DNA from: a virus
Lineage: Duplodnaviria; Caudoviricetes
Direction: 5' to 3' (one strand)
Length of the DNA stretch: 64,000 nucleotides
Virus record (IMG/VR): IMGVR_UViG_2600255093_000008
Span: 15,992 to 79,991 of that record
Positions 754 through 47,711 of the stretch are shown piece after piece. The notes under the pieces were generated by a model that ran no database searches, had not been told where the DNA came from, and was given only the letters and a program-made list of their open reading frames with translations. The stretch's first letter is position 1; each line of letters begins with the position of its first letter. A program made the translations under genes and the position numbers.

Positions 754-769
754 TAACCACGGAGGAACA

Positions 770-2092: not shown

Positions 2093-2137
2093 ATAGTTTT
2101 CAGGAACACGACCGCTGTTCAGTGCCAGCGGGAGTTA

Positions 2138-2175: not shown

Positions 2176-2199
2176 TTTCGTGCGACCCTAAATACGGGT

Positions 2200-2778: not shown

Positions 2779-2779
2779 A

Positions 2780-3172: not shown

Positions 3173-3181
3173 GGAGGGGCG

Positions 3182-3646: not shown

Positions 3647-3685
3647 ACGGTAGCCCCCTACATACAGGTAAACATAGGGGGATCA

Positions 3686-6087: not shown

Positions 6088-6095
6088 GGGGAGCG

Positions 6096-7034
6096 TTGGC
6101 GACTTATGTAGAGATTCCCGGTGGAGACGCATCGACCGACAAAGACGGCATTCGCACCTATCAGCGAACCTTTCGCGTTTACGGGCTTGACCCGAATCTG
6201 CGCCCGTCCTTTGGCATTTTAACAGTTCCGATCAATCGGTTTGATCCACATCCAGACGACAGCGGCGCTTTGGCAGTCGGCGTGTCTTCTGCTTTCGTGA
6301 ACGGCGAATTGGGCGTTCAGGATGTCACCTACTCGTACACCTCGCGCCCGTTCGATGCCGGAATCGGCGAAGATGTCGAGACTGGCGGACCAGGAGGGGG
6401 CGAGTTAAGCCCTGGTGCGACTGATCCGACCGCGAACAACAACCCGCTGAACCGTCCACCCACAATTAAATTCAGTCAAAACACCGTTCAAGTTCCGTTT
6501 GTCAAAGATTACAACCCCGCTGGCGCCAAGCCAGTTCGTAATTCAGCGGGCGTTCCCTTCGAGGGGGAAACCGTCGATGAAATCACCAGCATAATCACGA
6601 TTAGTTTTAACAAAGGTGTACTTGACGTATCGGACCGTCAGCAAACCTACTGTGGCTGCTGTAACGATGCCTCGTTCTCGATTTGCAATGCGTTCCCCAC
6701 TTCGTTCCCCGCGTACACCCTTCGCTGCAATGCGTGGACGGGAACAATCCAGTTCGAGGAGGGGATTTGGTACACAGCGTGCGAAATCGAACTGGAGTAC
6801 AACCGGCACACCTGGACACGCCGATTACTCGATGTGGGTTACACCTACTTGGACGGTACGGTAGACATTTTGGGCAGACCGATTTTAAAGCGTTTCCTGG
6901 ATCAGAGCACCGGCGCGCCAGTCGATCACCCCATGTACTTGAACGGTGCTGGTGCTCCGAATCCCCCGCTCTCTGCACCAGTTCCGCTGACCTTCTACCC
7001 GCACCCCCAAGTATCGTTTGCGAGTATTTTCTAA
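6096..7034 (+). CDS. Tail tip/hub protein
   Basis: Directly after tape measure; beta-rich. Confidence 0.6.
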   Translation: MATYVEIPGGDASTDKDGIRTYQRTFRVYGLDPNLRPSFGILTVPINRFDPHPDDSGALAVGVSSAFVNGELGVQDVTYSYTSRPFDAGIGEDVETGGPGGGELSPGATDPTANNNPLNRPPTIKFSQNTVQVPFVKDYNPAGAKPVRNSAGVPFEGETVDEITSIITISFNKGVLDVSDRQQTYCGCCNDASFSICNAFPTSFPAYTLRCNAWTGTIQFEEGIWYTACEIELEYNRHTWTRRLLDVGYTYLDGTVDILGRPILKRFLDQSTGAPVDHPMYLNGAGAPNPPLSAPVPLTFYPHPQVSFASIF

Positions 7035-7049
7035 AAACAAAGAGGACCA

Positions 7050-8363: not shown

Positions 8364-8374
8364 AAGAAGGAAAT

Positions 8375-8995
8375 TTGCACTACCTAATTAATTTAAAGAA
8401 GAGACCTGATCGACTGGCAGAATCACTCGAAGAGTGCCGCAAGGTCGGTATTACTCCGACCGTGTTCGAGGCGGTAGATGGTAGCACCCAAGTGATACCG
8501 CCCGAATGGAAGGAAGGGGCTGGCGCTTGGGGATGTCGTCTCAGTCACATGTCCGTTTTGGCTGACGCAATCGAGAAGGGTTACAATTGCGTTACAATTC
8601 TCGAAGACGACGTGACTTTCGTTCCTGACTTTCAGAAGAAACTGGCTGCCTTCATCGATTCAGTTCCCGACTACTGGCAAGCCGCCTTCCTTGGTGGACA
8701 GCACTGCGGTGCTCCCGAATATGTTTCAGAAAGCGTTTCTCGCTGCCTTTGCTGCCACCGAACACACGCAATCATGGTGCGAGGTGAGTTCATTCACCAG
8801 TTGCATTCGATCTACGCTGCGAGCACCGGACACATTGACTGGGCTTTCGCCCACGCCCAAAAGGATTACCGCGTTTACGCTCCGACGAGTTGGCTTGTGG
8901 GGCAGCGATCTTCGACCAGCGACATTACTGGAATGAGCACCGTATCCGATCGGTGGTGGATGCCCCGTAGGGCACTCGCAAAGAAGGTGCGGTGA
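8375..8995 (+). CDS. Glycosyltransferase family 25-like
   Basis: YLINLKKRPDR, FEAVDG, GC.LSH, ILEDDV motifs; TTG start after AAGGA. Confidence 0.88.
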   Translation: MHYLINLKKRPDRLAESLEECRKVGITPTVFEAVDGSTQVIPPEWKEGAGAWGCRLSHMSVLADAIEKGYNCVTILEDDVTFVPDFQKKLAAFIDSVPDYWQAAFLGGQHCGAPEYVSESVSRCLCCHRTHAIMVRGEFIHQLHSIYAASTGHIDWAFAHAQKDYRVYAPTSWLVGQRSSTSDITGMSTVSDRWWMPRRALAKKVR

Positions 8996-9693
8996 GTAAT
9001 AAAGACCTCAGCGTGGTATTCCCTTCGAGGGAGCGCCTGCCCCTCTTGTTTGATTGCCTTTCGAGCATCGCAGAGAACACCACCGACCTCACGCGAATCG
9101 AAGTGCTGGTAGCGATCGACAGCGACGACAAAAAGACGGTGCAGGCAGCCCCTTCGCTGGAGCAGCAGTTTCCGTTCGTAAAGTTCTTCGTTGGGGAACG
9201 GAAGAACAATTTAAGCGAGGGCTACTACTCTCCTCTAGCGATCCATTCCACGGGGGGCTGGGTTCAGCTTTTTAACGACGACGCGCAGATGGTTACGAAG
9301 GGCTGGAACGTCGCAGCCCTCGAGGTACTGAATAGTTTTCAGGAAGAGCATCCGGACGGCATCCTGTTGGGTTGTCCCCACGACGATACCGGCTGTGCGT
9401 ATTCGTGTTTTCCCGTGCTTTCGCGTCAAGCAATTTTGGCGTTGGGGCACGCGATCAACCCGGCATTCGGTTCGTGGGGCGGGGATGTCCAGCTAGACAT
9501 GGTGTTCACGACTTTAGGGCGCAAAGTGCCATTGCAGTACTCGATTTCTCACAAGTGCCCACACAACCGGACCAGGGGCAGAGATCGAGTGCAAGCGAGG
9601 ATGCCAAGGCTGACCCGTGGTTATCCCTACCAAGAAACCGTGAAAAAAGATGTGGAGCGCCTACGCAAAATTATCGGCGAGAGCACTAGATAG
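8992..9693 (+). CDS. Glycosyltransferase family 2-like (GT-A)
   Basis: LSVVFPSR.R, VAIDSDD, FNDD (DxD-like) motifs; GTGA overlap with GT25. Confidence 0.8.
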   Translation: MSNKDLSVVFPSRERLPLLFDCLSSIAENTTDLTRIEVLVAIDSDDKKTVQAAPSLEQQFPFVKFFVGERKNNLSEGYYSPLAIHSTGGWVQLFNDDAQMVTKGWNVAALEVLNSFQEEHPDGILLGCPHDDTGCAYSCFPVLSRQAILALGHAINPAFGSWGGDVQLDMVFTTLGRKVPLQYSISHKCPHNRTRGRDRVQARMPRLTRGYPYQETVKKDVERLRKIIGESTR

Positions 9694-9724
9694 TTTGGTC
9701 ATTTTCATTTCTGTTATTCTCTCT

Positions 9725-9757
9725 GCCCGGGGACTCGTTGTTCCCGGGCTATTTTTT
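9725..9757 (+). terminator. Rho-independent terminator ending the late operon
   Basis: GCCCGGG / CCCGGGC stem followed by TATTTTTT. Confidence 0.75.
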
Positions 9758-9848
9758 GCAGTAGTTGCAGCACCGCCCCATCCGACCTTTTCAAGATTCA
9801 GAGAATTCGCTCGAATAACAGAGTGAACTCCAACTGGAGGACTTCTCA

Positions 9849-10472
9849 GTGTCGAATCGCCTTTTGTACGGCGTTATTGCAGTCGGTTCGTTGCTTCTTA
9901 TCGCGGTTGTCACAGTTGCCGTTCTTGTGCCTGGAGATTCGGTTACGCGGTCGCTTATCGTTGTCGGCTACTTAATTGGATTTGCGAAGACGGCGTATGA
10001 CATCTGGGATAAGGAGCGTGAACGAGGGAAAAAAGCAGAAGACAGCAAAGAAAAGGTGCAAGCAACTGCCATTTGCAGAGACCATCCCAATGACAGTGAT
10101 GAGATAAACATTGGCACAGAAATATACAACCAGGGGGCATTTGTAAATATACGAAGTGTAACGCTTACCGCTAGGAGCAGCACAGGCGTTGTGAACGAAT
10201 TCAGTCTCGTCACAAACGAACGAGAAGTGAAAACTGACGACTTTGTTTATGAGAGCCAGTTTGATAAAGGTGCAAAAATAGATCCAAAGCACAATGTTCG
10301 CTTTTTCCTGAATGGCAAAACTCCTTCCTGGGGTTATTTTACCAGCTTACCTCCTGAAAATCTGTGGATATCAGTGCTCTCGTTTAATGGCGAAGTGGCA
10401 AGGATTACTGGTGATCAAATTCATAAGGCAATTAACCACTTTCTAGAGAAGAAAAACATGAGATATGCCTAA
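9849..10472 (+). CDS. Membrane-anchored hypothetical protein (AT-rich moron)
   Basis: Two N-terminal hydrophobic segments, then a beta-rich soluble domain. Confidence 0.65.
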   Translation: MSNRLLYGVIAVGSLLLIAVVTVAVLVPGDSVTRSLIVVGYLIGFAKTAYDIWDKERERGKKAEDSKEKVQATAICRDHPNDSDEINIGTEIYNQGAFVNIRSVTLTARSSTGVVNEFSLVTNEREVKTDDFVYESQFDKGAKIDPKHNVRFFLNGKTPSWGYFTSLPPENLWISVLSFNGEVARITGDQIHKAINHFLEKKNMRYA

Positions 10473-10563
10473 ATATCGTGCCGCTTCATCAGCGGTTATT
10501 CTCTCGAAAGCACAGCAGCCGGCAAAGAGTCGGCTGCTTGCAATTCAGGGATTATTATAATGA

Positions 10564-10917
10564 CTACCGCCTTTTCAGATCACGCAAGCCAAGGCTAAAA
10601 TAGAAATCAGGCGGAAGATCAACAACTATCCAATACATCTCGCTTATGCAAACAGTGCATCTTACATATGGCAGGCTTTCGCCATCAAACAGTTGAGACA
10701 TCGCAACCATATACCACTCTTTGTCATCGAGTTTGCCCGTGTCCATTTTCAACTGGTATTCGAGTTTCCATTTTTCCGCCTCTTTCACGCAAGTTTCCAG
10801 TTGCGCTCGGGTTAAATAGCGAACCTTAGTCCCTGCCACTTTCGGATCGTCCATCGAATCACTCCCCTGGTAGAGCCAAAATACAACTATTCGACACATT
10901 AATATAATACCATGCAA
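10564..10917 (-). CDS. Hypothetical protein (AT-rich moron; may start at MDDPKV)
   Basis: Protein-like composition; convergent with the previous gene. Confidence 0.55.
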   Translation of the reverse strand: MHGIILMCRIVVFWLYQGSDSMDDPKVAGTKVRYLTRAQLETCVKEAEKWKLEYQLKMDTGKLDDKEWYMVAMSQLFDGESLPYVRCTVCISEMYWIVVDLPPDFYFSLGLRDLKRR

Positions 10918-11055
10918 TTCCTACTATTGTCAAGTTTACAATTGCATTTCTCATTTTATGAAAGCTAATTCTTTCATAAGGACAAAGCTGTCCAGTTTGC
11001 TGCCCGAAGCCGGGTATATAGCGCTGCCTCGAATTACAAATAAAAAGGAATTCCC

Positions 11056-11355
11056 TTGGAAAACATCGATTTCAGTGACGCCACTCGGTGGCATTTGAGC
11101 CAGAGTGCCACCAGTTACGTGACAAAAGGAAGTGGACTGGTCGCGTGCATCTTCAGTTCAAAAAGACCAGAAAAGAGCAAATTCGGCGCGTGGGTCAAAG
11201 TGGACGGGATCGGCAATCGAGACGCGGCCCCGCTCTACCTCGCGTGGTGTCAGTCGCTCCGCGAAGCGATGCTTGAGATGGAAGTGGCGCGGCACAAGTT
11301 TTTGGCAGGAAAATTCGGGACAGCGGGCGAGCGAGAGGGGGAGAGCGAAGGGTGA
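11056..11355 (+). CDS. Hypothetical phage protein
   Basis: TTG start after AAGGA; protein-like composition. Confidence 0.55.
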   Translation: MENIDFSDATRWHLSQSATSYVTKGSGLVACIFSSKRPEKSKFGAWVKVDGIGNRDAAPLYLAWCQSLREAMLEMEVARHKFLAGKFGTAGEREGESEG

Positions 11356-11836
11356 GGGGGGCGAGCACACGACCACGCACAAGTTAACTCGAATTTTTCG
11401 CACTTCGTGCACTAAAGCCGTAAGCACTGGTGGAATTTCTGCAAACTATAAAAATTGGTCGAGCTGGCGGAAATCGCACAGAATTGCGTGCGCAGCACGA
11501 ACAGGGTGGAACGGCACAAACTACCGTTTAACCTGCCGTTCGTGGCGTAGCGATTAATTAAATAAATAACAGGCGGTACGGAGCAAGTAACTGGCAGTTC
11601 GACCCGTTCCACAAGCACGAAAATAACTGGCAGCAAACTTTAGTGCGGAAAGTACAGACTGCCCCTCTGCCTTTGGTTTGGCAGGAAGCGTAGCGTTAGT
11701 TTGGAATCCGATCCGCCGCAGGCGGTGAGGATTTTGCCGAACGCAGTGAGGCATCACCACCGCAAGTTAACAAATATTATACTGGTCAATTTGGTCTAGA
11801 GGTAGAATTGCACTTCTGTTAGAATCGCAAAAACAA

Positions 11837-12082
11837 TTAACTTAAGTTAACTCTTGTTAATTTAGGATCATGCAAGAACTTTTTTATCACAGTCGTCGGC
11901 ACGACGACTGTGATAACCACCTTGTGCCCAAAGCGGCACAAGGTGGTTGCTCTCAACTTAATGAACTCAAATGAACTAAAATACTAGTGTTCGATTTGGA
12001 TCATTTTTCGAGGGGTGTATGGATCGTTCTGCGTACCAACTCGTGTACCAAACGGGGATCGCTTTTGGATCATTTTTCGAGG
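11837..12082. repeat. Palindrome, two perfect hairpins and a 19-bp direct repeat (candidate origin/operator)
   Basis: TTAACTTAAGTTAA 11837-11850; 15-bp IR 11884-11916; 14-bp IR 11915-11948; TTTGGATCATTTTTCGAGG at 11995 and 12064. Confidence 0.7.
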
Positions 12083-12092
12083 AAATTTATAG

Positions 12093-12665
12093 ATGCGAAA
12101 TGACAATTTTCACCAAATTAAATGCCCATCACTGAACTACATTTGCCCTCTGGATTGGCGTGCAAGTTTGGTTTACGGCGTGTGTCTCTGGCACTCACCT
12201 AAAACAATGTTGGAACTATCGGAACTTACCGGATTCCACCGCAGCCGTGACTTGCCCACATCGATCTCGATTTTGGCAAAGCACCAACTCGTTGACTCCG
12301 ACACCTTGCGTGCAAACCTACCCAATGCCGAACTGGGCTGGTTCAAGTTTTGGGAGAAAACTCAGGATCGCATCCCCCTAGCGTTCCGTTTTATCGGGGT
12401 GCGGTCGGATGCCTGCCCGCTGACTCCTTACCAAAATATGATCTACTGGACGATGGTATCTTTAGGAAAGCAACTGGCAAAGTATGGCGTTTCCGGGTTG
12501 GCGACGATCGCTCATGTTCCGCGCCCGAGTCTGAGCGTGGCGCTTGATGAACTTAAGGAAAAGGGCTGCCTGGGCGAGAAGAAATTCACTATGAATCGCC
12601 CCGAAAATTTGGCGGACTGGTGGAAACCCGCCCCGACCACTGATTTGGCAGCGTACTGGGACTGA
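12093..12665 (+). CDS. Tandem winged-HTH-like protein (possible replication initiator)
   Basis: Two HTH-like segments (TMLELSELTG...LAKHQLV; GVSGLATIAHVPRPSLSVALDELKEKG). Confidence 0.55.
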   Translation: MRNDNFHQIKCPSLNYICPLDWRASLVYGVCLWHSPKTMLELSELTGFHRSRDLPTSISILAKHQLVDSDTLRANLPNAELGWFKFWEKTQDRIPLAFRFIGVRSDACPLTPYQNMIYWTMVSLGKQLAKYGVSGLATIAHVPRPSLSVALDELKEKGCLGEKKFTMNRPENLADWWKPAPTTDLAAYWD

Positions 12666-12741
12666 CCTTCGAGTTGCCAAAGAAGGAGCACACGGGAATT
12701 CGTTCCGTGTGCTCTGGGCTGTTGCCCAATGCGGTGGTGTT

Positions 12742-13368
12742 TCAGTTTCGTTTGCGGGGTTTCCACTTCGCGTAGCGCCGAAATGTGCCCGCCATCTCGT
12801 CTTTACCTTTGTCCTGAATGTAATCGGCGAATATTGCAAAATCTGCCTGACAGTCGATTTGAAATTCCGGGTGCTCGTCCTTCGCCCACACTTTCAGTTT
12901 GTCTACCTTCGTGGGTTTGGGAGTGGGGTTGATGGCTACCTGACCAGAACTCAGGTGCAGTACCCCACCCCGTTTGAGCAGTGAACAGAATTCACACCAC
13001 TCTCTATTCGCCAATTGGGTCAGTGTCAAAGCAACCACGACCAGCGCAAAAGAATGCCCGTCCGTGTTCGGTGGCGGTTGCCCGTTGCCGTGCGCTGTGA
13101 TTTTAAAATCGACATTCTGTGACCAAGTCGATTTTTTGGTTAGCGGACTTGCCTCAATGACACCGCCCGACGCCAAGAGATCCCCGCCGAGCGAATTGCC
13201 CATGTCATCGTAGAGTTTCCATGCCCAGTACGATAAATCCTGAAGATCGCGCTCTTCGCGGGCGGTTAACTCCTGCTCTGATCCGAACACTCGGTGCGTC
13301 AGATCGCTAATCATCATCGCTGCGTACTGCGCGGTGTCCACATCGTCGCCACGAGGCTCGTCAGCCAT
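12742..13368 (-). CDS. Hypothetical protein
   Basis: 208-aa ORF with a purine-rich GAGAG upstream and protein-like composition. Confidence 0.55.
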   Translation of the reverse strand: MADEPRGDDVDTAQYAAMMISDLTHRVFGSEQELTAREERDLQDLSYWAWKLYDDMGNSLGGDLLASGGVIEASPLTKKSTWSQNVDFKITAHGNGQPPPNTDGHSFALVVVALTLTQLANREWCEFCSLLKRGGVLHLSSGQVAINPTPKPTKVDKLKVWAKDEHPEFQIDCQADFAIFADYIQDKGKDEMAGTFRRYAKWKPRKRN

Positions 13369-13699
13369 CGGTCTGCTCTCTCAGAGTGATTGGGGACTGT
13401 CGGATCCTTACCCCTCAAACACCCGCCCCTTTCACTCTTCTTAATTTTCATAAGCGCGTCTCGGAACAGCACATTTTCTTACTCAGCGCGTGCAATTCTG
13501 CACTTTCCACCGCAAAGTTAGCCCCCACCCCTTTCTGAAAAGCATTTTGCTCTAACCAAAACTACTGTTTTCTCTCATTTTTGCCCAAAAAACTTCAATT
13601 TTCTGCAAAAAAGCAAGTTTTTGCCACCAATTTTCACCCAAAAAATAGCTCCAAACAAGCGGTTTTTCCAGTAATTATGAATTATCATACGTTTTTCAG

Positions 13700-13728
13700 T
13701 TGACAGTGCGAGTAATCTGTGATATAAT
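13700..13728 (+). promoter_or_regulatory. Perfect sigma70 promoter with extended -10
   Basis: TTGACA-17 bp-TATAAT with TG at -15/-14; A/T tracts upstream. Confidence 0.9.
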
Positions 13729-13773
13729 TGCTTTAGTAAATAATAATAAATTGCAGAAAGGCAGGATTTTGAA

Positions 13774-14556
13774 ATGTCCGCAAAAAGTACGATCGAATGG
13801 TGCGACGCAACATGGAATCCGGTAAGGGGGTGTACCAAGATTTCCCCCGGATGTGCCCATTGCTACGCGGAGACTTTTAGCGAAAGATTCCGGGGTGTTC
13901 CCGGGCACGCTTTTGAGCAAGGATTTGATTTGAAACTTGTGCCCAAAATGCTCAAAGCGCCTTTGACATGGGCAACCCCAACGATAATTTTTGTGAACTC
14001 GATGAGTGACTTGTTCCACAAAGGCGTGCCTGAAAAATATATCGAGGAAGTTTGCTGGGTAATGCAGAAAGCCAACTGGCACACTTACCAAGTGCTAACT
14101 AAGCGATCGGAGCGAATGCGGGACTTCCTTCTAGCCCACCCCGAATTCGGCAAACTGAAGCATGTCTGGTGGGGTGTCTCGGTCGAGAATAAAAAGCACG
14201 GACTGCCAAGAATCGATCATCTCCGCGAAGCACCCGCAGTCACCAGATTCCTTTCAGTCGAACCACTTCTCGAAGACCTCGGAAAACTAAATCTAAAAGG
14301 GATTCACTGGGTAATCGCAGGTGGCGAGAGCGGACACGGTGCGCGACCGATGGAAGCGGATTGGGTGCGATCGATCCGTGAGCAGTGCGCAGCCAAAGGA
14401 GTGGATTTCTTTTTTAAGCAGTGGGGCGGGCGGCAAAAGAAAAAGACCGGTCGGACTCTCGACGGGCAGACCTACGACGCGATGCCTGAGCGAATCAGCC
14501 TGCCCGTGCTGTCGCGAAGCGAGCGAATGGAACTTATCGAAGAATTGAAAGTGTAG
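13774..14556 (+). CDS. DUF5131 (phage Gp37/Gp68) radical-SAM-like protein
   Basis: IEWCDATWNPVRGCTKISPGCAHCYAE, FVNSMSDLFH, FLSVEPLL, WVIAGGESG, FFFKQWGG. Confidence 0.92.
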   Translation: MSAKSTIEWCDATWNPVRGCTKISPGCAHCYAETFSERFRGVPGHAFEQGFDLKLVPKMLKAPLTWATPTIIFVNSMSDLFHKGVPEKYIEEVCWVMQKANWHTYQVLTKRSERMRDFLLAHPEFGKLKHVWWGVSVENKKHGLPRIDHLREAPAVTRFLSVEPLLEDLGKLNLKGIHWVIAGGESGHGARPMEADWVRSIREQCAAKGVDFFFKQWGGRQKKKTGRTLDGQTYDAMPERISLPVLSRSERMELIEELKV

Positions 14557-14567
14557 TGGAGTGAACA

Positions 14568-14591
14568 AAGGCCGCCCCAAAGGGCGGCCTT
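14568..14591. terminator. Hairpin between convergent genes
   Basis: AAGGCCGCCC-CAAA-GGGCGGCCTT. Confidence 0.7.
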
Positions 14592-14596
14592 CACTC

Positions 14597-14797
14597 TTAA
14601 TTCGGCAAGTCGCTCGAACTGATGTGCAGCCAGCGCCCGCACCTGGGGCACGAGTAAAAGCGTATCAGCCCTCTCAAATCTAAGCGGATTTGGGTTAGTC
14701 GCGAAGGCTCATCGCAAGTCGGACACTCGTCCGACTCACGCAACTCAACCGTGTCATAGTAGCGCAAATAGTCCGGCAGGACTTTGGGCGTGGGCAT
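14597..14797 (-). CDS. Small zinc-ribbon protein
   Basis: CPTC...CPRC from MPTPKVLP. Confidence 0.5.
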   Translation of the reverse strand: MPTPKVLPDYLRYYDTVELRESDECPTCDEPSRLTQIRLDLRGLIRFYSCPRCGRWLHISSSDLPN

Positions 14798-14904
14798 GGG
14801 GCGAATCGGGGCTGGAGCAGGGTGCGAGTCAGAAAATCCTACACTCTGTACTCCTGGAGTGCCCCCATTTATTTCAGGATCTGAATTTATTCTTTTCAGG
14901 AGCG

Positions 14905-15321
14905 TTGATGTTCCCCGAAGCACGTACCGCCACGCTTGTGGTTAAGACTCGCCCTCTCGTGATTCCCCTGCCCGACACGGGAGCGGATAAGCGGCTTTGG
15001 TCGGCACTGCTTGACCTCGCAGACATTGCTCGAACTGCGATCAACCGTGACCAATCCGACCGGGCCACGGAAGCCATTCAGCAAGCCACGCGCGAGATCC
15101 GCCAATCACTCGGTAGCCGCAATCCCGTCAGCGAAATTATCGACTTGCAGGAAGCAGCAGCGATTTGCCGTCTGTCGGTTCGCACGCTGCATAACCGGAT
15201 GTGCGAAGACCCTACCTGTCCGCGACTCCCGGGTAAGCACCCGACCTTCAACCGGGCTGCACTGGTGAAGTGGCGTGCGAATTTGCCCCTTCGCAAAAAG
15301 AAGAAAAAGAAGAAAGTCTGA
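14905..15321 (+). CDS. Excisionase-like HTH protein
   Basis: IIDLQEAAAICRLSVRTLHN...FNRAALVKW; directly upstream of integrase. Confidence 0.75.
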   Translation: MMFPEARTATLVVKTRPLVIPLPDTGADKRLWSALLDLADIARTAINRDQSDRATEAIQQATREIRQSLGSRNPVSEIIDLQEAAAICRLSVRTLHNRMCEDPTCPRLPGKHPTFNRAALVKWRANLPLRKKKKKKKV

Positions 15322-15398
15322 CACCTCTTGGAACCGCAGAACGGTTCCATTCACTGGTTCCGGGGCAAAATCTTGAACTCTAAACGAAAGGAAATGAC

Positions 15399-16598
15399 AT
15401 GGCTCGTCCGGCTAAGAATGCGCTCCCCATCGGGGACACGGGAATTGAAGTGAGCGTTTCGCTCAAGCAACGCGGTGACATCTATTCCTGCAAGTTCCCG
15501 CACCCAACGATTAAGGGCAAATACTGCGAAGTGACCACGGGACGGCGCAGTCAACACGAAGCGTGGGCGGCAGCGGCAAAGATCGTCCTGGAGATGTACC
15601 AACCGACCGTCAAACCCACCGCAAGGAATGTGACCTGGGAACAAGTGCTGGAGGAACTGTCATTTGCCAAAGGCATTCGAGCACGAACAATCGAACTTTA
15701 CTCGAATACAGTAAAAATTCTAAGAGTATTCGTTGAGACAGCGCGACCGATCGACATTTCCGAAGCCAAAGCGAACCGGTTCGCGGAACTCTATGCAAGC
15801 ACCCCGTACACTCGCACGAAGGCAGAAGGTGCGAAGCAGTACACGCGCAGTGCGAAGACGGTAGACAACGCGATTCACTTCCTGTCTTGTCTGTGGACAC
15901 GATTAAAAAAGATGGGGTATGTCAACTCTAACCCCTGGCAGAGTGTGCCCCGCCCGGATATTCCGAAAAAGCAACCGACTGCTCCGACAGAGCAAGAGTT
16001 CGCGGAGTTCTTCGCGTGGCTCGATGCCAAAGAATGGGAACTGATGAGCGTACTGCTTCGCTTGAAGTCACTTTCTGGCTGCCGTACCCTCGATGTCTGT
16101 TCGCTCGGAACGAAGCACTTCGATCCGAAAGCCGGTGCAGTAATCATTCCTCCCGAGTTAGACAAGACGCACCGCGAACGGCTAATCCCGCTACCGCCCG
16201 ACCTCGCCAAAAGAATAAATTTAATCAAAGGCAGAGTCTACCTCTGGGATCGGTACACCCCAGAAACGCAGCAGAGGGACGCGCGAGCAACGGACAAGTT
16301 TTACCCCAAACTCCTCGCGATGGCGGTTCGCAGGCTGTTCCGGCGCTACTACATCGAGTGCCCTGAGCGTCCCCGCATTAAGCCACACGATTTCCGACGA
16401 CGGGCAATCACGCTTACCGTGAAGGCAACCGGTTCAGTGGACGCAGCAGCATCGGCACTCGGCGTCAGACCCGAAACTGCGATGCGGCATTACATCGACG
16501 CGGAGAAGGCATTCAAAGGTCAGGAACTGATGCGGAAGATGGCGGACATCCTATTGCCCCAAAACCCTGCCCCGATTGTCCCAGAACCCGAGAAGTGA
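15399..16598 (+). CDS. int: Tyrosine recombinase/integrase
   Basis: SGCR (R), KT, PHDFRR (HxxR), ETAMRHY (Y) catalytic motifs. Confidence 0.93.
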   Translation: MARPAKNALPIGDTGIEVSVSLKQRGDIYSCKFPHPTIKGKYCEVTTGRRSQHEAWAAAAKIVLEMYQPTVKPTARNVTWEQVLEELSFAKGIRARTIELYSNTVKILRVFVETARPIDISEAKANRFAELYASTPYTRTKAEGAKQYTRSAKTVDNAIHFLSCLWTRLKKMGYVNSNPWQSVPRPDIPKKQPTAPTEQEFAEFFAWLDAKEWELMSVLLRLKSLSGCRTLDVCSLGTKHFDPKAGAVIIPPELDKTHRERLIPLPPDLAKRINLIKGRVYLWDRYTPETQQRDARATDKFYPKLLAMAVRRLFRRYYIECPERPRIKPHDFRRRAITLTVKATGSVDAAASALGVRPETAMRHYIDAEKAFKGQELMRKMADILLPQNPAPIVPEPEK

Positions 16599-17148: not shown

Positions 17149-17721
17149 ATGCCCGCAACCAGGAAGCGGCAGCCCAAATCCGCGCACACACCCGATCCCG
17201 ACGCACCAACGCCCCGTGAATTGAGACTCGACGCGGCCGATCACGTCGCGTGGGCCAAATCCCGCGCTCGTGGGGTGCGTGCCGACTTCGGTTTCCTGGA
17301 GGGGTCCGCGGAGGAAGAGGAGCTGGAGTCCGTCGCCCTGGCCGCGCTGGTGCGACTGATTGACCGGTTCGACGAGTCCCGTTTGCCGCCCGGTGGTGAT
17401 CTGGCCAAGGCGTTCCGGGGCGCGTCCAGCACTGCGATCCGCTCGGAGTGCCGGCGCGCGGGTGAGCAGCTCCGCAACGGCGGGACGTACCGCACGAAGC
17501 AGGGCGGGTATCTGGTCGTCGGCGGTCTGCCGGTGAATGCCGACGGCGAAGAGGAAGTGACCGATCCCGTCTCGCTCGAAGAGGACGACCACGACGGGTC
17601 ATTGATCGCTGAGCCGGCAGTGTTCGCCAAGGCGCGCACCGGGACCGGGCCGAACGCCGTGGCGCAGCCCGGGGACACTCGCGCGCGGTTTGCGGCCCTG
17701 CTCGCGCAACTGAGGGGCTAG
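17149..17721 (+). CDS. Sigma70-family protein with region 2 but no region 4
   Basis: H.AWAKSRA / EELESVALAALVRLIDRFD / FRGASSTAIRSECRRA align by eye with sigma regions 2.1-2.4; PVSLE resembles region 3.2; no C-terminal HTH. Confidence 0.72.
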   Translation: MPATRKRQPKSAHTPDPDAPTPRELRLDAADHVAWAKSRARGVRADFGFLEGSAEEEELESVALAALVRLIDRFDESRLPPGGDLAKAFRGASSTAIRSECRRAGEQLRNGGTYRTKQGGYLVVGGLPVNADGEEEVTDPVSLEEDDHDGSLIAEPAVFAKARTGTGPNAVAQPGDTRARFAALLAQLRG

Positions 17722-40842: not shown

Positions 40843-41208
40843 CTATTTCCGAGCAGGCTCCACAGCAAAGGCGAACCGTCCGAAGATGTGTGGGAACATC
40901 TCACGAGCGATCACCAGCCCGGCATCCGTTGTGTGCTCGCCTTCGAGTACGAACGCGCTGTTACTATTCCCCCGGCTGTCTCCGCTGCGATCCCAGAACG
41001 CGAGCACGGTCCATCCGTTGATGACCGATCGGTGAACGGCGCCCTGCACCTGGTCGCCGTCTTGAGGCAGTAGATGGCTGTCCAGGATGTGCAGAGCGAA
41101 CGGCAGAGAACGCTCTGCGTCGCGACCAGCGAAACGACCACTGCGCGTGTGCAGATGGTGCCCCGCTTGACCCGCGTTCCACACACCGAAGTAGTACACC
41201 TGCATCAC
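40843..41208 (-). CDS. Hypothetical protein coupled to the portal
   Basis: ATGA overlap; YYFGVW..AGH, WDRS.D.R.NSNSAF. Confidence 0.6.
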   Translation of the reverse strand: MMQVYYFGVWNAGQAGHHLHTRSGRFAGRDAERSLPFALHILDSHLLPQDGDQVQGAVHRSVINGWTVLAFWDRSGDSRGNSNSAFVLEGEHTTDAGLVIAREMFPHIFGRFAFAVEPARK

Positions 41209-44066
41209 GACATCCCCTTGACCAGTTCCCGGAGCCGCTGTTCAACCGTCGCCGCGTCGGGTGCGGCACGCTCGACGCTAAGCTGCTCGTTAAGGTGGGT
41301 GAACAGTTCGGCGATCATCGCGGCCCACACACCGAACCCGTCGTCGGTGTCCACCGCTTCACCGCGGACCTTGTGAGCGGCCCAATACGCGGCCTTGACG
41401 ATCACCTTTGAGGCAATCGACGCGACGAGGTGCCCAGAGATGCCGAACCCGAGCGCATCGTTGAGATTCGAGGACACCGCGTCGGCAGTCTTCGGGTTGG
41501 CCGTTCCGGAGCTGAGGTTCGGGTTGTAGCCGAGCAGCTTCATGTCGCCCGGGGTATCCAGAATCGCACCGAGTATCCCACCGATGCGTTCGGCCGCGGG
41601 ACTCAGGCGAATCGACCACTCGTAGGCTTTCACGGCCGCGGTCAGGGCCAGATCCTTGACGCGCGCGACGGTGCCAGCGGGCGGGCGCTTGTCGGCTGGC
41701 AGTGCCGCAATGTCCTTGTCGATGCCTGCGGTGATGGACGCGCGGTCGTCGTCGTGCAACTCGTGGGCGCGGTCGGGTGCGGCGGCGTCGGACGGACCGT
41801 TACCTTTAACGCGGCGCTGGTACGTGGTCCCGTTCGACAAATGGACGTCGATTATCCGATCTTCCCAGACAATCGCCTTGATCGGTGCCGATTCCTTTTT
41901 CGCCGGCGCGACCTGACCCTTCACGAGCACCTTGCCGTCGGGCAACACGACCGGCGGGCGAACGACAACGCCCGTATCGCCGGGGAACATCCCCGCGGGT
42001 GCGTAGTACAGTGCGCCGGAATGTTTGACCGGCTCGCCCTTCTTCGGCCCGGTCGTCGCGGCGCCGGTGATCGGCAACACACGCTCGATGGCCGCTTGAG
42101 CCTCGACGTGGCCGAGGTCGTGAGCGTGCATCCATACCGACGCGAGTTCTTGCGCCAAGTCCCGAGCGTCGCCGTCGGTCGCGTTGAAGAGCGCGGATTC
42201 GAGGTAGTCTTTCGCCACCGGGTCCGTGGCCTGAGAAATGGCCGCTTTGGTCGCGCTGAAGGGGTCCGATTCGGTCGACTGGTCGGGCGCCTTAGCGACC
42301 TGTTTGCCGTCAACGTAATGCCGCTCGCGCCCCTTCGCGTCCTTGATGGTGCCCGTGAAACCTTCTTTCAGAATGGCTTCACCGAAGATTCCCCCGTCAT
42401 CCGGAGACGTGCCGTCACCGCCCGCACTGCCCGGGGGTGTGGGCGTGGGATCTTTCGGACCGGCCGTCGGCGCTGGTACCGGTGCGGGAAGTCCGCCCAT
42501 CTCTGTCAGCTTCTTCTTGTGGCTGGCAAGGTTCGCGAGCAGCACTTTTGGATCGTCGCCGGCAGCGCTCATCCACTTGTAGGGATCGGCCACACCCTTA
42601 TCGAGTAGCGCGAGGAAGGTACGAGCCTTCTTTTCTTCGTCGGCGATCACAACCGGCTTCGAGGTCAGCACGGGCTTCACCCGCCGCCACGTGCCCTGTG
42701 GCAGCCGGCCCGATTCCTCGCACAGCAGAATCACGCGCTCGATAACGGACCGCGTGAACCCTTGCTGCTTCTTCTGGCGACCTTCGATGATGCGGACGAA
42801 GGGGGAGCCGGACACGAGGCTCGACGCGAACGAGTCGGCCTCTCCGGAGAAGGAAGACGGCAGGCCGAAGCGGAAGCTGATGCTCCGCATGATGGCCTGC
42901 TCGACCTGGACGAACCCGTTGGGTTGCGACGTCGGCCCCACCTGGACGTTGCGCCCGGCTTCGGTGCGGATGATCGAGCCGGCGTCGTAATTCTTCACAT
43001 CCACGCGCGCAGCATTTGAGCCTTGCCCCGGTCCACCGAGCCGCAGGCCCTGATAGTCGCGGTTCGTTTCGATATGCCGGCGGAGATTGTCTTCGGTCGT
43101 GTTGGCGTACTCTTCCCACCACGCAATTGCCGCTTGCAGTCGAGCCACGTGGCCCATGTTTTCGAGCAGGCCCGCTACCTTGCGCACCAGCTCAGCGACC
43201 GGCCGGAAGTCGCTCATGCCGCGTTTCACGACGCGGTCAACGTTATGCTTCGTGCGCACGAACCGGTTCGCCGGGATCACGCGCCCGCCGTCGCGGTCCG
43301 GGTGGGCCACGTAGATCGCCGGCACTGTCTCGGCGTCGTGGGGCTTGGTGAGCGCGCCCCACTTCCAGTCTTCGAGGCTGGCCCAATCAAAGTCGCGCGG
43401 CACCTCATCCGGTGTGCGGATTAGCTCAGGCTCAACGTGACGGCACACGGGCACTTCGCCCCGACCGCCGCGGAAAAACTCGAGAGTCGCTTCCCCTTCA
43501 AGGATGCTGCGCCCGATGCACTCCTCTTCCCGGTCCGTCTCGCCCTGGCCCCAGTCGTTGACCTCGCACCACTCGTCCCATGCCTCTTGTACAGTGCGGA
43601 CGAGCGGGTCAACGTCCGTCTGACCGTCGCCGTCGGCATCGACCGGGCCGGACGCGGTGGAGCCGGGCGCCTGGCCGCGCAACACGAACTGTACGGACAC
43701 GGGACCGATGAACGCCTTGACGTGATCCCTGAACCCGATCAGCAGGTGATTTCGCTGCGCCATCTCGCGCACGAGCGACAGGTGCAGGCGCCATTCCTCT
43801 TCGGTCAGGTACGGCAGCGCCGCGTGCGTGCGGTCGTCGGCCCGGTCCGCGGGATAGCCCCCACCGAACCCACCGAGGTAACCGAACGTGCCGTCATAGA
43901 ATCGGTCGAATCGCCAGGAGACGGCGTCGAGTGCAGCAATCTGCTCGCGGACCCGGCCTTCCGCGAGCGCGAGTTGCCGACGAAGTGTGGTCAGACCCTC
44001 TGGTTCCGATGAACCAGAGGTTGCGGGGAGTGCTTCGGATGTGGTCAGCGTGATGGCCGGATACAT
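41205..44066 (-). CDS. Lambda-family portal protein with about 400-aa C-terminal extension
   Basis: DGE-like ILEGE, VEPE, H....DR..KRGMSD portal motifs; ATG abuts motif copy E. Confidence 0.85.
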   Translation of the reverse strand: MYPAITLTTSEALPATSGSSEPEGLTTLRRQLALAEGRVREQIAALDAVSWRFDRFYDGTFGYLGGFGGGYPADRADDRTHAALPYLTEEEWRLHLSLVREMAQRNHLLIGFRDHVKAFIGPVSVQFVLRGQAPGSTASGPVDADGDGQTDVDPLVRTVQEAWDEWCEVNDWGQGETDREEECIGRSILEGEATLEFFRGGRGEVPVCRHVEPELIRTPDEVPRDFDWASLEDWKWGALTKPHDAETVPAIYVAHPDRDGGRVIPANRFVRTKHNVDRVVKRGMSDFRPVAELVRKVAGLLENMGHVARLQAAIAWWEEYANTTEDNLRRHIETNRDYQGLRLGGPGQGSNAARVDVKNYDAGSIIRTEAGRNVQVGPTSQPNGFVQVEQAIMRSISFRFGLPSSFSGEADSFASSLVSGSPFVRIIEGRQKKQQGFTRSVIERVILLCEESGRLPQGTWRRVKPVLTSKPVVIADEEKKARTFLALLDKGVADPYKWMSAAGDDPKVLLANLASHKKKLTEMGGLPAPVPAPTAGPKDPTPTPPGSAGGDGTSPDDGGIFGEAILKEGFTGTIKDAKGRERHYVDGKQVAKAPDQSTESDPFSATKAAISQATDPVAKDYLESALFNATDGDARDLAQELASVWMHAHDLGHVEAQAAIERVLPITGAATTGPKKGEPVKHSGALYYAPAGMFPGDTGVVVRPPVVLPDGKVLVKGQVAPAKKESAPIKAIVWEDRIIDVHLSNGTTYQRRVKGNGPSDAAAPDRAHELHDDDRASITAGIDKDIAALPADKRPPAGTVARVKDLALTAAVKAYEWSIRLSPAAERIGGILGAILDTPGDMKLLGYNPNLSSGTANPKTADAVSSNLNDALGFGISGHLVASIASKVIVKAAYWAAHKVRGEAVDTDDGFGVWAAMIAELFTHLNEQLSVERAAPDAATVEQRLRELVKGMS

Positions 44067-44082
44067 GACCGGCCAATGGCAC
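44067..44082 (-). promoter_or_regulatory. 16-nt motif, copy E, abutting ATG
   Basis: GTGCCATTGGCCGGTC|ATG. Confidence 0.8.
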
Positions 44083-44085
44083 CGG

Positions 44086-44490
44086 CTACACCTGGTGCGT
44101 GCCTTCGACGCCACGTGCGAGTCGATCCTTCGTGCGTTGCTGCAAAGACGCACGCGCGGACCGCAGTGAGCTGAGCGCGTCTGCGTTGTACGGATGCGCG
44201 AACGGGCCGTTCTGGAAACCCTCCAGTCGGTCGATCAGGATCGTGAGCAACACTTCGTGCGTCAGCCCGTTAGTTCCGACTTCGGGGATCGGGCCGTTTT
44301 GGAACAGGATCGTCGAATGTTGAGCGGGCTGACCATGACGCGCCGTCCACGGATCGGACGGATTAGTTCCGCTATTGAATCCTTCGACCTGGTAGAGGTG
44401 CGGCGCGCCGCCCTTGCCCGGCTCGTCGAGCACAGTGATAGTGAGATGGTCGTTGCAACCGTTTACCTTGTGGCCGTTCAACTCGCGCAT
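44086..44490 (-). CDS. tad1: Tad1-family anti-Thoeris signal sponge
   Basis: GGAPH.Y, FQNGP..E.G.NG, LL.ILIDRL.GFQ.GPF...N, RT.DR..RGVEGT match the recalled Tad1 motif set. Confidence 0.82.
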   Translation of the reverse strand: MRELNGHKVNGCNDHLTITVLDEPGKGGAPHLYQVEGFNSGTNPSDPWTARHGQPAQHSTILFQNGPIPEVGTNGLTHEVLLTILIDRLEGFQNGPFAHPYNADALSSLRSARASLQQRTKDRLARGVEGTHQV

Positions 44491-44520
44491 TGGGCACTCC
44501 GTTAGGAAATCGAAAGAGAC

Positions 44521-44536
44521 GAACGGCCAATGGCAC
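44521..44536 (-). promoter_or_regulatory. 16-nt motif, copy F
   Basis: GTGCCATTGGCCGTTC, then a 30-nt leader with GGAG SD. Confidence 0.75.
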
Positions 44537-44540
44537 TGAC

Positions 44541-45230
44541 TTAGCGCGAGGCTTTAGCTCGTCGGGCTTTGACAACCGGAGTAGTGTCTACGGTCTGACT
44601 GCAAACCCATTCGCCGGCCGCGTAGGTCTGGCACGACTTACACTTTCTGCACGCCTGGAATCGTCCGCGTACTGACTTCAGGGACCATTCCTCACACCAC
44701 CAACAGAGATCGTGAAGGGCCTGTTCTTTGGTCTGCCGGATCACGTCGGCCTTACTGTCCCATTCGAGCGGGTGCAGCATCCTGCCCGTGTGCCCGGCCG
44801 CGACCTGGAGTGCGTCAAATGCGGCTTGGTATCGACCTGCGTTGTGCCAGAAGTCATCGGTGCGGATGTAGCCGGAGTAGAGATCCTCGTCGCGTTCCAG
44901 GTAATTGATGGCTGTCGTGAGCCACAGCAAGGCTTGCGGGTTGTCGGATGAGCCGATGCCGTTCTCCGGTCGCCAAGTGCGGAAGTTCTGTTTGGCCGAC
45001 ACTTCGAGGTAATTGATCGTGAAGCCGAGCGCGCGGAACTTCTCCTTAAGCGCGGTACGGGCGTTCGCCGCGGCCTTCTCGTGCATGGAGACTTGCGGGT
45101 GAACGATAGTGAGCGCGCGAATGCCGTGCGGGTGGTGAGTGGTCCCGTCGCGATGCTCGGTCGCGATGCGATGCAGAACCAACGTCGAATCGAGACCGCC
45201 GGACCAGCAGAGCAAAGACATAAAACGCAA
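44541..45230 (-). CDS. QueC-like PP-loop ATPase
   Basis: WSGGLDST PP-loop; PL...SKADV; CWWC...CRKCKSC zinc site. Confidence 0.85.
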   Translation of the reverse strand: MRFMSLLCWSGGLDSTLVLHRIATEHRDGTTHHPHGIRALTIVHPQVSMHEKAAANARTALKEKFRALGFTINYLEVSAKQNFRTWRPENGIGSSDNPQALLWLTTAINYLERDEDLYSGYIRTDDFWHNAGRYQAAFDALQVAAGHTGRMLHPLEWDSKADVIRQTKEQALHDLCWWCEEWSLKSVRGRFQACRKCKSCQTYAAGEWVCSQTVDTTPVVKARRAKASR

Positions 45231-45286
45231 TCTCCAAAGGGATCGTGCCAGGATGCGCAGTCGGAACAGAATGTCATCGCCGGCCT

Positions 45287-45475
45287 CTATCGATCAACGC
45301 CGTGCTTCGTTTCGCGCGTGTCTTCCTTTTCATCAGCCGACCGATGCCGCTGAGTCGGCACGTAAGCCAAGTACCCGGACGACCGCAGTTCGTTCAGGAC
45401 CACTTTGCGGCAATGCTTGCAGAATCGCTCGTGAGCCTCCGCAGGGAATGCCTTGCAACGTTCGCAGGTCTTCAT
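45287..45475 (-). CDS. Small zinc-finger protein
   Basis: CERC...CKHC; ATGA overlap with terL. Confidence 0.6.
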   Translation of the reverse strand: MKTCERCKAFPAEAHERFCKHCRKVVLNELRSSGYLAYVPTQRHRSADEKEDTRETKHGVDR

Positions 45476-46929
45476 GTCAACAGTTCCTCCAACCGAATGA
45501 CGGCCGTCGCCAGCGCATCAGGGCCGTCGTCGTGATCGCCGTGGGGGAAGTCGCGGAGTTGATTCGCGAGTAGCTGCCCGCCCGCAGTGTTGCGGACACG
45601 GATCTGGCCGAGGCGGATGTAGTCGTTGAGCGCGCGAATGCGCACGATCTTCGGGTCCGAGACGCTCTTCTCGTAGTAGATCAACGACACAGGCCGGCCC
45701 TGCTTGAGCCGGTCTTGCTTCACACGCTCGGCAGCCGGCCCGAAGAGGCCCATCGTGTTGTTGACTTCCGCGACCAACTCCTTCGGCTGCCAGCTCGCCG
45801 CGATGTCGATGGCCCGTTCGACCCACTCAGGCTCGCGCCTCAACTCGCAGTCAACGAACAGCGTGCCGTACCGGGACAGGCCGAGCATGATGTGGGCCTG
45901 GTAGTCGGACTTCTCGCTCGTGCCCTTCGAGGGGTCCAGGGACTGGATCTTGAACACGATGTCGTCGGGCCACTGATTGAAGAAGAAGTCAGCGCGGTCG
46001 AAGCACTCCGACGGCCATTCCACGCCTTCGATCGACCCGGGCACGCCCTGGAATTCGGACTCGAACGCGGACGCGCCCACTTCGGCCCGCTTCAGCATGA
46101 TGTCGAGCAAGCTGAATCGCTGGGGCCAGTAGAGCACCGCGCCCTCGTCCATCGCAGCTTTGTTCCGCTCGTAGAACGCACGCGCCGTTGTGTCGCGGTT
46201 GTCGTCGGCGAGGTTCGTCGCAAGCCTCTCGAACTCGTCCCACAGGTCCATTCGCTTCGGCCAGGAGTGGACGGCCTTGTACGTGTGCCCGGACCAGCCG
46301 GCGAGTTTGCCGAGACGGACCGCAACGGCCTCACGGTGGATGGCGGAGCCGACGGCGAGGAAGTTCGTGTGCTCATCGCCGGCGTTCATCACCTCGCGCG
46401 TGGCCCATCGCCAAGCGTGGTCGCGTTCGATCGGCGAGATAACGTCTTTGTTCGATTGAATGTCGTCGAAAATGATGAGTGACGGTCGGGCTGATCGGTT
46501 GCGGCGCCCGCGCACCTTTTTGCCGCGGCCGAGGGCCTCGATAATCGACCCGTTGCGGAGTTGGATTCGCGACGTCTTCCATTCCGGCCCGACGCCCGCT
46601 GCGTCCGAGTACACCGTGCGAATCAGGTCGTTGTCTTCGAGCTCCTTCCTGATGTGCCCTAAGTGCTGGTCGGCCTGGTCGCTGCTGTCCGACAGAATGA
46701 GCGTGTACTTCTCCCAACCCTCCAGGGCGGCACGGAGCGGGTAGGCGAGCGTCTTCCAGGTGCTTTTCGCTCCACCCCGCGGCGCGATGTCGGAGATCTT
46801 CACCGATCTCCGCTTGTGGAGTTGGTGCAGCTCGGTGTCGAACTGGCGGTGAAAGTCCGCCTGGCTGCCGCGGAAGTAGTGCGGCAGGTACGTGCGGTTC
46901 CAATCCGTCGGCGATAACTCACGCGCCAT
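45472..46929 (-). CDS. terL: Terminase large subunit
   Basis: APRGGAKST Walker A, LIIFDD Walker B, LDPS..SDY and HDDGPDA nuclease motifs. Confidence 0.93.
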   Translation of the reverse strand: MARELSPTDWNRTYLPHYFRGSQADFHRQFDTELHQLHKRRSVKISDIAPRGGAKSTWKTLAYPLRAALEGWEKYTLILSDSSDQADQHLGHIRKELEDNDLIRTVYSDAAGVGPEWKTSRIQLRNGSIIEALGRGKKVRGRRNRSARPSLIIFDDIQSNKDVISPIERDHAWRWATREVMNAGDEHTNFLAVGSAIHREAVAVRLGKLAGWSGHTYKAVHSWPKRMDLWDEFERLATNLADDNRDTTARAFYERNKAAMDEGAVLYWPQRFSLLDIMLKRAEVGASAFESEFQGVPGSIEGVEWPSECFDRADFFFNQWPDDIVFKIQSLDPSKGTSEKSDYQAHIMLGLSRYGTLFVDCELRREPEWVERAIDIAASWQPKELVAEVNNTMGLFGPAAERVKQDRLKQGRPVSLIYYEKSVSDPKIVRIRALNDYIRLGQIRVRNTAGGQLLANQLRDFPHGDHDDGPDALATAVIRLEELLT

Positions 46930-47695
46930 CAGCCGTTCCCCGGCCGCCCAAATGCGGCGGAGCGAAGAGGGGGCGAAGGGCAGTGAGGAGAGCTGCGAGT
47001 TCATCGGGGGCCATCTTGGTCAGGTCCGGCAGGTCGCCGTCTTTGATCTTCACCACGTCCTCGAACATGCCGAGGTGCCGCGCGACGTTGACCAGTGCGG
47101 CGTGTTGGTCGTTGAGTTTGGCTTCGATTCCCTCTTTGGTTTGCTTCACGCCGGCGTAGAGGCACTTCGCCGCGGCAGACAGCAACCGAGTGTCTTTGAT
47201 GTGGGTTCGGCCTTCGCCCTCACCGAAGCACTCGGAGCAGTCCGGGTGAGGCGGCTTCCTCGCGTCGTAACCGTCGCCCCCCATTGTGGCGAACGTGCCG
47301 GGGTGCGGTTCCTTCGAGTTGGCCTGGTGCGCACGGACCAGCACATCGTGCGCGGCCCGATCCCGCTCCAACTCCCCCTGCGTGCGCTGGTACCGGTTCC
47401 CGCGACCGTGGCAGTACCGGCAGCACGTCCGCCGGTACTCCACGATCTCGTTCGCATCGGCCGTCGCGATCGACCAGAACCGCTGTAGGACCGCGTCCGC
47501 ACTGATCTCCGTGCTTTTACTGCGTTTCGCAATCGCCGCATCGATCGCCGCTTTTACGTCAACAAAAGTCAACAACCGCTGACCGATCTGCTTCGCCGTC
47601 TTTGCCGAATACCCTGCCCGAATAGCGGCTTGCGTTGCGTTCAGATCGATCAGGTATTCAGCGACGAAACGCTGTTGCTTGGGTGTAAGAGCCAT
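46919..47695 (-). CDS. terS: Terminase small subunit with Cys-rich insert
   Basis: LTPKQQRFVAEYLIDLNATQAAIRAGYS; CCRYC and CSEC. Confidence 0.93.
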   Translation of the reverse strand: MALTPKQQRFVAEYLIDLNATQAAIRAGYSAKTAKQIGQRLLTFVDVKAAIDAAIAKRSKSTEISADAVLQRFWSIATADANEIVEYRRTCCRYCHGRGNRYQRTQGELERDRAAHDVLVRAHQANSKEPHPGTFATMGGDGYDARKPPHPDCSECFGEGEGRTHIKDTRLLSAAAKCLYAGVKQTKEGIEAKLNDQHAALVNVARHLGMFEDVVKIKDGDLPDLTKMAPDELAALLTALRPLFAPPHLGGRGTADGA

Positions 47696-47711
47696 GCCCG
47701 GCAAATGGCAC
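47696..47711 (-). promoter_or_regulatory. 16-nt motif, copy G, abutting terS ATG
   Basis: GTGCCATTTGCCGGGC|ATG. Confidence 0.78.

Follow-up and report, generated by a model that had tools for sequence, protein, structure and literature searches.

Genes and sequence elements between the terminase and the portal

The locus lies in a window of 64,000 nucleotides (the whole stretch of DNA that was analysed), within a prophage of a Gemmata-like planctomycete genome. On the minus strand, the genes are arranged in the order TerS, TerL, zinc-ribbon, QueC-like, Tad1-like and portal. An earlier reading made from the sequence alone had placed the Tad1-like gene between terminase and portal; this order is right, but the wording is loose, since the zinc-ribbon and QueC-like genes intervene on the terminase side. 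The features of the locus are:

46919-47695, minus strand: terminase small subunit TerS (Terminase_2), with a 12-mer ahead of it at 47700-47711
45472-47004, minus strand: terminase large subunit TerL (PHROG 38), the upstream border of the cargo slot
45287-45475, minus strand: zinc-ribbon protein of 62 aa, the first gene of the slot, its start overlapping the TerL stop
44541-45230, minus strand: QueC-like PP-loop protein, co-resident in the slot (21 bits against a QueC equivalog cut-off of 150)
44525-44536, minus strand: 12-mer GTGCCATTGGCC, a candidate promoter/TSS element, 5 nt past the QueC-like stop and 34 nt before the Tad1 ATG
44491-44524, minus strand: leader of 34 nt that includes GGAG, a Shine-Dalgarno-like sequence, at 44497-44500, opening with GTTCGTC like the leader that follows the 12-mer copy at 53113 (GATTCGTC)
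44086-44490, minus strand: Tad1-family sponge gene (P0001), 134 aa, with its ATG at 44490 and its stop at 44086-44088
44071-44082, minus strand: second, identical 12-mer, separated by 3 nt from the Tad1 stop and by 4 nt from the portal ATG (44066)
41205-44066, minus strand: portal of 953 aa (PHROG 21), whose start, MYPAITL, is common to the portals of related prophages

The start codon assigned to the Tad1-like gene is credible, because the GGAG lies 6 nt 5' of the ATG and because the N-terminus MRELxxHKV is conserved in an alignment of homologues. The gene is bracketed by the two direct 12-mer copies, which are 454 nt apart, and one may speculate that these copies served as recombination handles.

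The product is a member of the Tad1 family

Every motif of the Tad1 set quoted in the sequence-only reading was found in the 134-residue open reading frame (GGAPHLY at residues 27-33, FQNG at 63-66, DRLEGFQNGPFAHPYN at 87-102 and RTKDRLARGVEGT at 119-131), and the two departures it had described, HPYNA for xRENA and RSARAS for EEA.MW, were both seen in the HMMER alignment to CbTad1 (SRENA/HPYNA and EEALMW/RSARAS). When the protein was compared with all PDB chains by phmmer, the best match was Pseudomonas phage phiKZ gp184/Tad1 (8Y6V chain I, E 4e-18), followed by CmTad1 (8KBB, E 2.6e-12) and by 7UAV and other CbTad1 entries (E ~2e-9; 1.8e-9); nothing but Tad1 entries fell below E 0.1, and the next, unrelated match had an E of 0.14. 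An AF2 model built from a 55-sequence alignment (pLDDT 95.3, pTM 0.85) has strands at residues 2-4, 17-20, 32-36 and 58-63, followed by helices at 78-94 and 100-126. The structural match to Tad1 that had been proposed as a check was found with this model: the first 20 Foldseek matches in the PDB were all Tad1 chains (E 2e-9 to 5e-8, TM 0.70-0.82; next match E 0.67), and VIA-align to CbTad1 with 1''-3' gcADPR gave a Z of 13.2 and an rmsd of 3.3 Å with 122 of 124 residues aligned, unrelated helical hairpins scoring Z 7.3 or less. Sequence and predicted fold thus agree on the family, as the earlier reading had claimed, and, judged by both, the product of 44086-44490 is a genuine member of the Tad1 family. 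What is new here is one more Tad1; the family itself and its fold are already known.

Another proposed check, a search against the Acb2/Tad1 hairpin family, came out silent as run with the local profile PF24729.2 (Acb2_Tad1_hairpin): hmmscan of the Tad1-like protein against Pfam-A returned no family at E up to 1, and the profile found no match in the host genome, with control genomes silent as well. This silence is probably a matter of model version, since the precomputed annotation with PF24729.3 does match the Tad1-like protein and 120 of the 120 homologues listed. PADLOC and NCBIfam profiles gave no match to the protein, and a PHROGs search placed it in families of 'unknown function' only. 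The Tad1 family is very large, with 2636 matches and 3571 clusters.

CbTad1 (7UAV/7UAW/8SMD, 8KBE-H), CmTad1 (8KBB-D) and SBSphiJ7 Tad1 are homologous to the protein over the full length at 28-33% identity. Like these proteins, it has an N-terminal antiparallel sheet and a two-helix hairpin in its predicted fold, the same residues in the pocket for gcADPR and cyclic dinucleotides (CDN), a C-terminal lid motif, and a small, stand-alone, phage-borne gene; however, its beta3-beta4 loop (NSGTNPSDPWTARHGQPAQ) is 10 residues longer, and its host is a planctomycete, whereas theirs is a Firmicute. The sponge Acb2 (T4 Vs.4, 7UQ2) shares the helical hairpin (Pfam Acb2_Tad1_hairpin; VIA Z 5.8 over residues 76-134), but lacks the N-terminal beta-sheet domain and differs in its pocket residues, and these two features rule out Acb2 as the identity of the protein.

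The gcADPR pocket is kept and the trinucleotide residues are replaced

In CbTad1, gcADPR and 2'3'-cGAMP share a dimer-interface pocket that needs F82, N92, R109 and R113 (Li et al., PMC10680739), while R90 and T97 bind cyclic trinucleotides (cA3) at the trimer-of-dimers interface (PMC10680739). The hexamer interface of CmTad1 is made of R88, T95, K96, Q98, E99, M102, W103 and K106, including a Met-Trp pair, and the cyclic-trinucleotide site is present in most, not all, Tad1 proteins, with 6% substituted (PMC10680739). CDN spectra also differ among Tad1 homologues, and the loops surrounding the pocket vary.

In total, 270 relatives were considered, comprising 120 close homologues (of the 2636 matches) and 150 representatives of 50%-identity clusters (of the 3571). 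All four pocket residues of CbTad1 are kept in the phmmer alignments, as F92, N102, R119 and R123; they are conserved without exception among the 120 close homologues, and at least 143 of the 150 cluster representatives keep them too. The C-terminal lid is kept as well; ERNVLGT of CbTad1 (lid 116-122) aligns with ARGVEGT, and the lid residues R126, V128, E129 and G130 are each at least 90% conserved among homologues. By contrast with this intact pocket, the trinucleotide Arg (CbTad1 R90, CmTad1 R88) is gone, being replaced by P100, and T97 is S107. CmTad1 K96, Q98, E99 and K106 correspond to S, R, S and Q, and the Met-Trp hexamer contact is A114-S115, so that 7 of the 8 hexamer-interface positions are changed in the sequence alignment, although a differently built interface is possible. 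The altered ligand range suggested earlier would accordingly apply to the trinucleotide site, as far as can be told from the alignments, and not to the gcADPR/CDN pocket.

R/K100, T/S107 and W115 co-vary strongly among the 270 relatives, all three being present in 52 and all absent in 158. On a FastTree phylogeny built without these triad columns, the 'full' state changes about 19 times, compared with about 48 times when labels are shuffled; the nearest homologue with a full triad is 70% identical to the Tad1-like protein, and P0029 is an example of a full homologue at this identity. The best-scoring solved relative, phiKZ gp184, which is 43% identical over residues 26-132, is also triad-less, its residues at the R90, T97 and Trp positions being Glu, Asn and Ala. 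The triad-less state is thus common among the sampled sequences and is present in phiKZ Tad1 too. The co-loss of the triad offers a simple sequence-based criterion to separate Tad1 homologues that are likely to act against Thoeris alone from those likely to act against both Thoeris and CBASS. Taken together, the Tad1-like protein is best read from these residues as having retained the gcADPR pocket, and possibly dinucleotide binding, and as having lost the trinucleotide site; the canonical hexamer was probably lost along with that site, and an anti-CBASS action via cyclic trinucleotides appears unlikely.

The gap between TerL and portal is a cargo slot

Prophages with a 67-70% identical TerL were found in three genomes of the same genus and as a second copy in the host genome (five loci). 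The portal lies 0.75-6.4 kb downstream of TerL in 4 of the 5 loci, the fifth having no portal match in the 10 kb fetched, and genes for the zinc-ribbon, QueC-like and Tad1-like proteins were found after TerL in none of the five. Instead, the TerL-portal gap of these related Gemmataceae prophages holds TIGR02996 (rpt_mate_G_obs) proteins. The GC3 of the three inserted genes of the window is 0.68-0.73, below that of TerL (0.85) and of the portal (0.79). In this prophage lineage, the gap is thus a hotspot for cargo, and the slot provides a handle for finding more of it.

Two side observations concern the related prophages. TIGR02996, a planctomycete-specific domain of unknown function that travels as phage cargo, is present in one copy in three prophages and in about six tandem copies in another (L043-L046; L045:1783-2553, L046:2029-2712, L043:2508-6445). 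The TerL of the second related prophage in the host genome, at C2:500268-501734, is 69% identical.

Homologues of the Tad1-like protein with 62-71% identity come from IMG/VR contigs and from genomes labelled Gemmata sp., Gemmataceae and Phenylobacterium. When 10 neighbouring window proteins were searched by tblastn against nine Tad1-homologue loci, no match was found near the homologues, and on two viral contigs the homologues lie among DNA polymerase, exonuclease, Sak4-like and ParB-methyltransferase genes. The Tad1-like gene is therefore regarded as mobile accessory cargo, because its homologues stand in unrelated neighbourhoods and because sister prophages fill the slot differently; its placement in a packaging module is unusual among the few comparators. 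A conserved pairing of Tad1 with the QueC-like gene was considered and rejected, since neither the QueC-like nor the zinc-ribbon gene accompanies the Tad1 homologues elsewhere (9 loci).

A phage-specific 12-mer precedes lytic genes

The 12-mer occurs in the window as five exact and three one-mismatch copies, all on the minus strand (24589, 27892, 30835, 40827, 44071, 44525, 47700 and 53113), whereas about 0.3 would be expected. In the 9.27-Mb genome there are seven exact copies, five of them inside the prophage; one of the two exact copies outside the window, at C2:526581, lies 25 kb downstream of the TerL of the second prophage. Downstream of each copy in the window, and on its strand, comes the start codon of one of eight lytic genes. 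Five of the eight copies stand exactly 4 nt before the ATG (…GGCCGGTCATG), filling a stop-to-ATG gap of 20-25 nt; the other three, ahead of a lysis-region gene, the Tad1-like gene and a replication-module gene, are followed by leaders of 18, 34 or 35 nt that include a Shine-Dalgarno-like sequence. In the sister prophages, the variant GCCATCGGCCGGG stands before the portal ATG. A scan of viral contigs with a 19-mer (the motif plus ATG) hit a single contig that has no proteins in common with the window, and this hit was treated as a chance match.

The two spacing classes would fit a promoter-like element that sets the transcription start a few nucleotides downstream, which would give mostly leaderless mRNAs, and short-leadered mRNAs in three cases. 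A motif promoter belonging to the Tad1-like gene had been proposed at the outset. The motif is real, and its repetition suggests the promoter role; a scan of 43900-45600 for sigma-70 promoters and terminators found none on the coding strand, and a candidate sigma-like reader of the 12-mer (17149-17721) has no Pfam match and a best PDB E of 0.75. The late expression that had also been envisaged is too narrow a description, since the copy at 53113 stands ahead of a gene of the replication module, which makes the motif a mark of lytic genes in general. Co-expression of the sponge with structural genes would be sensible, because structural proteins can trigger Thoeris, tail fibres doing so for type II (bioRxiv 10.64898/2026.06.04.730250).

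It is quite possible, though we put it short of an even chance, that the 12-mer is instead an intercistronic RNA or DNA element, acting in processing, coupling or regulator binding, and that the Tad1-like gene is co-transcribed from the start of the packaging operon. The fixed 4-nt distance at which five copies fill the intergenic gap favours this, as do the lack of a terminator between the genes in the scanned region and the lack of Pfam or PDB support for the candidate sigma factor. Against it, the three copies that precede leaders of 18-35 nt with Shine-Dalgarno-like sequences of their own indicate that the motif is not itself a ribosome-binding site; furthermore, the motif is strand-specific and almost confined to the prophage within 9.27 Mb, and its variant recurs ahead of the portal ATG in sister prophages. 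The phage-specific 12-mer is in any case a handle for studying promoter use in planctomycete phages.

The host genome carries an orphan ThsA-like gene

The host genome has 9.27 Mb and a GC content of 64%, and its housekeeping ThiC is closest to entries from Gemmata, Gemmataceae and Planctomycetes. The sequence-only reading had inferred that a planctomycete Thoeris or CBASS system is being countered; this was not borne out in the lysogen, where the ThsB_TIR and SMODS CD-NTase profiles had no match and an orphan ThsA-like gene is the only component found, although the phage may meet other hosts too. Two TIR_2 proteins were considered as Thoeris and rejected, one being a bSEFIR and the other a pAgo-associated REase-TIR-APAZ. 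Of four SIR2_2 proteins in the genome, one is a ThsA-like SIR2-SLOG protein of full length (PADLOC ThsA1, E 1e-65, positions 8-432 of 478; PDB 6LHX, E 1e-34), and it is encoded in the following pair:

G000:C2:1071622-1074126 (L007:7623-10129): ThsA-like and ThiC-like genes with a 4-nt overlap, translationally coupled

The downstream gene of the pair encodes a divergent ThiC-family radical-SAM paralogue that reaches 151 bits where the equivalog cut-off is 410, the real ThiC being encoded elsewhere. The pair lies in a low-GC island beside genes for a HATPase_c_3 protein, DHFR and ThyA, with no adjacent TIR gene, and the ThsA-like gene was not found in nine genomes of the same genus. As a side observation, the pair may be Thoeris-like with a non-TIR signal generator.

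A minor observation concerns the housekeeping ThiC (C5:73446-74846, L054), whose sequence seems broken close to the C-terminus, where the match to the family falls into two parts with one in-frame TGA; homologues cover only 70% of the called open reading frame, and this may reflect a frameshift or an assembly error.

Proposed function and alternative readings

The best explanation overall, and one that we consider probable, is that the gene encodes a Tad1 sponge for gcADPR that is without the trinucleotide site, is carried as accessory cargo and is transcribed with the lytic regulon. From the observed family membership, predicted fold, residue conservation, cargo status and motif statistics we infer a ligand, an oligomeric state, a promoter function, a timing and a host target as follows. 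The small phage protein would oligomerise and sequester TIR-made glycocyclic ADP-ribose (3'cADPR / 2'cADPR), and the sequestered signals could then no longer switch on effectors with a SLOG domain, for example ThsA. We predict binding in the canonical dimer-interface pocket formed by F92, N102, R119 and R123 together with the RGVEGT lid, and this pocket may accept some cyclic dinucleotides as well. The protein is also predicted to lack the second site of Tad1, which takes cyclic trinucleotides at the trimer-of-dimers interface, because Pro100 stands in place of the phosphate-binding Arg and seven of the eight residues of the hexamer interface are changed; it may act as a dimer or as an oligomer of another architecture. 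Transcription of the gene probably occurs as part of the lytic regulon, whether the polymerase reads through from the packaging operon or initiates from the 12-mer 34 nt upstream.

Two other readings of the protein were weighed against the gcADPR sponge. The same fold could serve another ligand, the pocket binding another nucleotide signal of planctomycetes, such as a different cADPR isomer, a cyclic dinucleotide or an as yet undescribed signal, in which case the protein would not be directed against type I Thoeris in its natural host. The varying CDN spectra of Tad1 homologues and the differing loops around the pocket are consistent with this, and so are the roughly one-quarter of tested sponge homologues that blocked none of seven systems (0/7) and a host without ThsB and CD-NTase but with an orphan ThsA-like gene that is coupled to one for a divergent radical-SAM protein of the ThiC family; however, each of the four residues that mutation showed to be required for gcADPR binding is invariant in the clade and the C-terminal lid segment is conserved, and we regard a shifted ligand as distinctly unlikely. 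Alternatively, the protein could be packaged in the virion, being enclosed in the capsid and injected along with the DNA like phiKZ gp184, which would account for the position of its gene in the head module. Within the phiKZ capsid, gp184 has been built into the vertex complex at the inner surface (PMC11297242), and it is treated as a functional, injected Tad1 (bioRxiv 10.1101/2025.11.23.690004; review PMC13282480). Its N-terminus is wedged in the capsid, and the head protease releases its C-terminal part, which is injected (bioRxiv 10.1101/2025.11.23.690004; PMC13282480). That the closest solved relative resides in the capsid, and that the Tad1-like gene is directly upstream of the portal, argues for packaging. 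So does the length of the family members: half of the 150 cluster representatives have at least 180 aa, typically with the Tad1 domain at the C-terminus, which makes N-terminally extended forms common in the family, and about two-thirds of these longer representatives carry a long N-terminal extension, as gp184 does. Nevertheless, gp184 has 230 aa, residues 17-132 of the Tad1-like protein align to gp184 116-227, and the capsid-anchoring N-terminal part of about 115 residues is absent from the protein, which is a Tad1 domain alone. Because it is without this anchoring extension, packaging is only a minor rival, and a very improbable one, given also that close homologues lie in the replication/recombination modules of other phages and that the same slot holds unrelated cargo in sister prophages.

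Returning to the gcADPR sponge, the results can be joined into a broader reading, which we consider unlikely in its entirety but worth stating. The protein would belong to a large, barely described Tad1 morph in which the trinucleotide site and the hexamer interface were lost as one module (R/K100, T/S107, W115), leaving a dimeric sponge for gcADPR only; this morph would include phiKZ Tad1 and be the majority form among environmental relatives. The gene would be wired into the lytic/structural regulon, and its target may be the orphan ThsA-like effector. If so, the sponge would be made at the same time as the virion proteins by which TIR sensors are triggered, and the ThsA-like effector of the host would pair with a ThiC-family radical-SAM enzyme and not with a TIR protein.

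Bona fide Tad1 sponges now reach prophages of the Gemmataceae (Planctomycetota), a phylum in which, to our knowledge, there has been almost no experimental work on phage defence. Their presence in a Gemmataceae prophage implies that signalling of the gcADPR type is a selective pressure there, and knowledge of the Tad1 mechanism is unchanged by the present results.

Left end of the window

The first 16 kb of the window (1-16000) have a GC content of 0.46-0.55, compared with 0.64 for the genome. This segment has the appearance of an island of its own, or of the prophage end on the attachment side; it contains a DUF5131 gene at 13774-14556 and ends with a tyrosine integrase gene (15399-16598).
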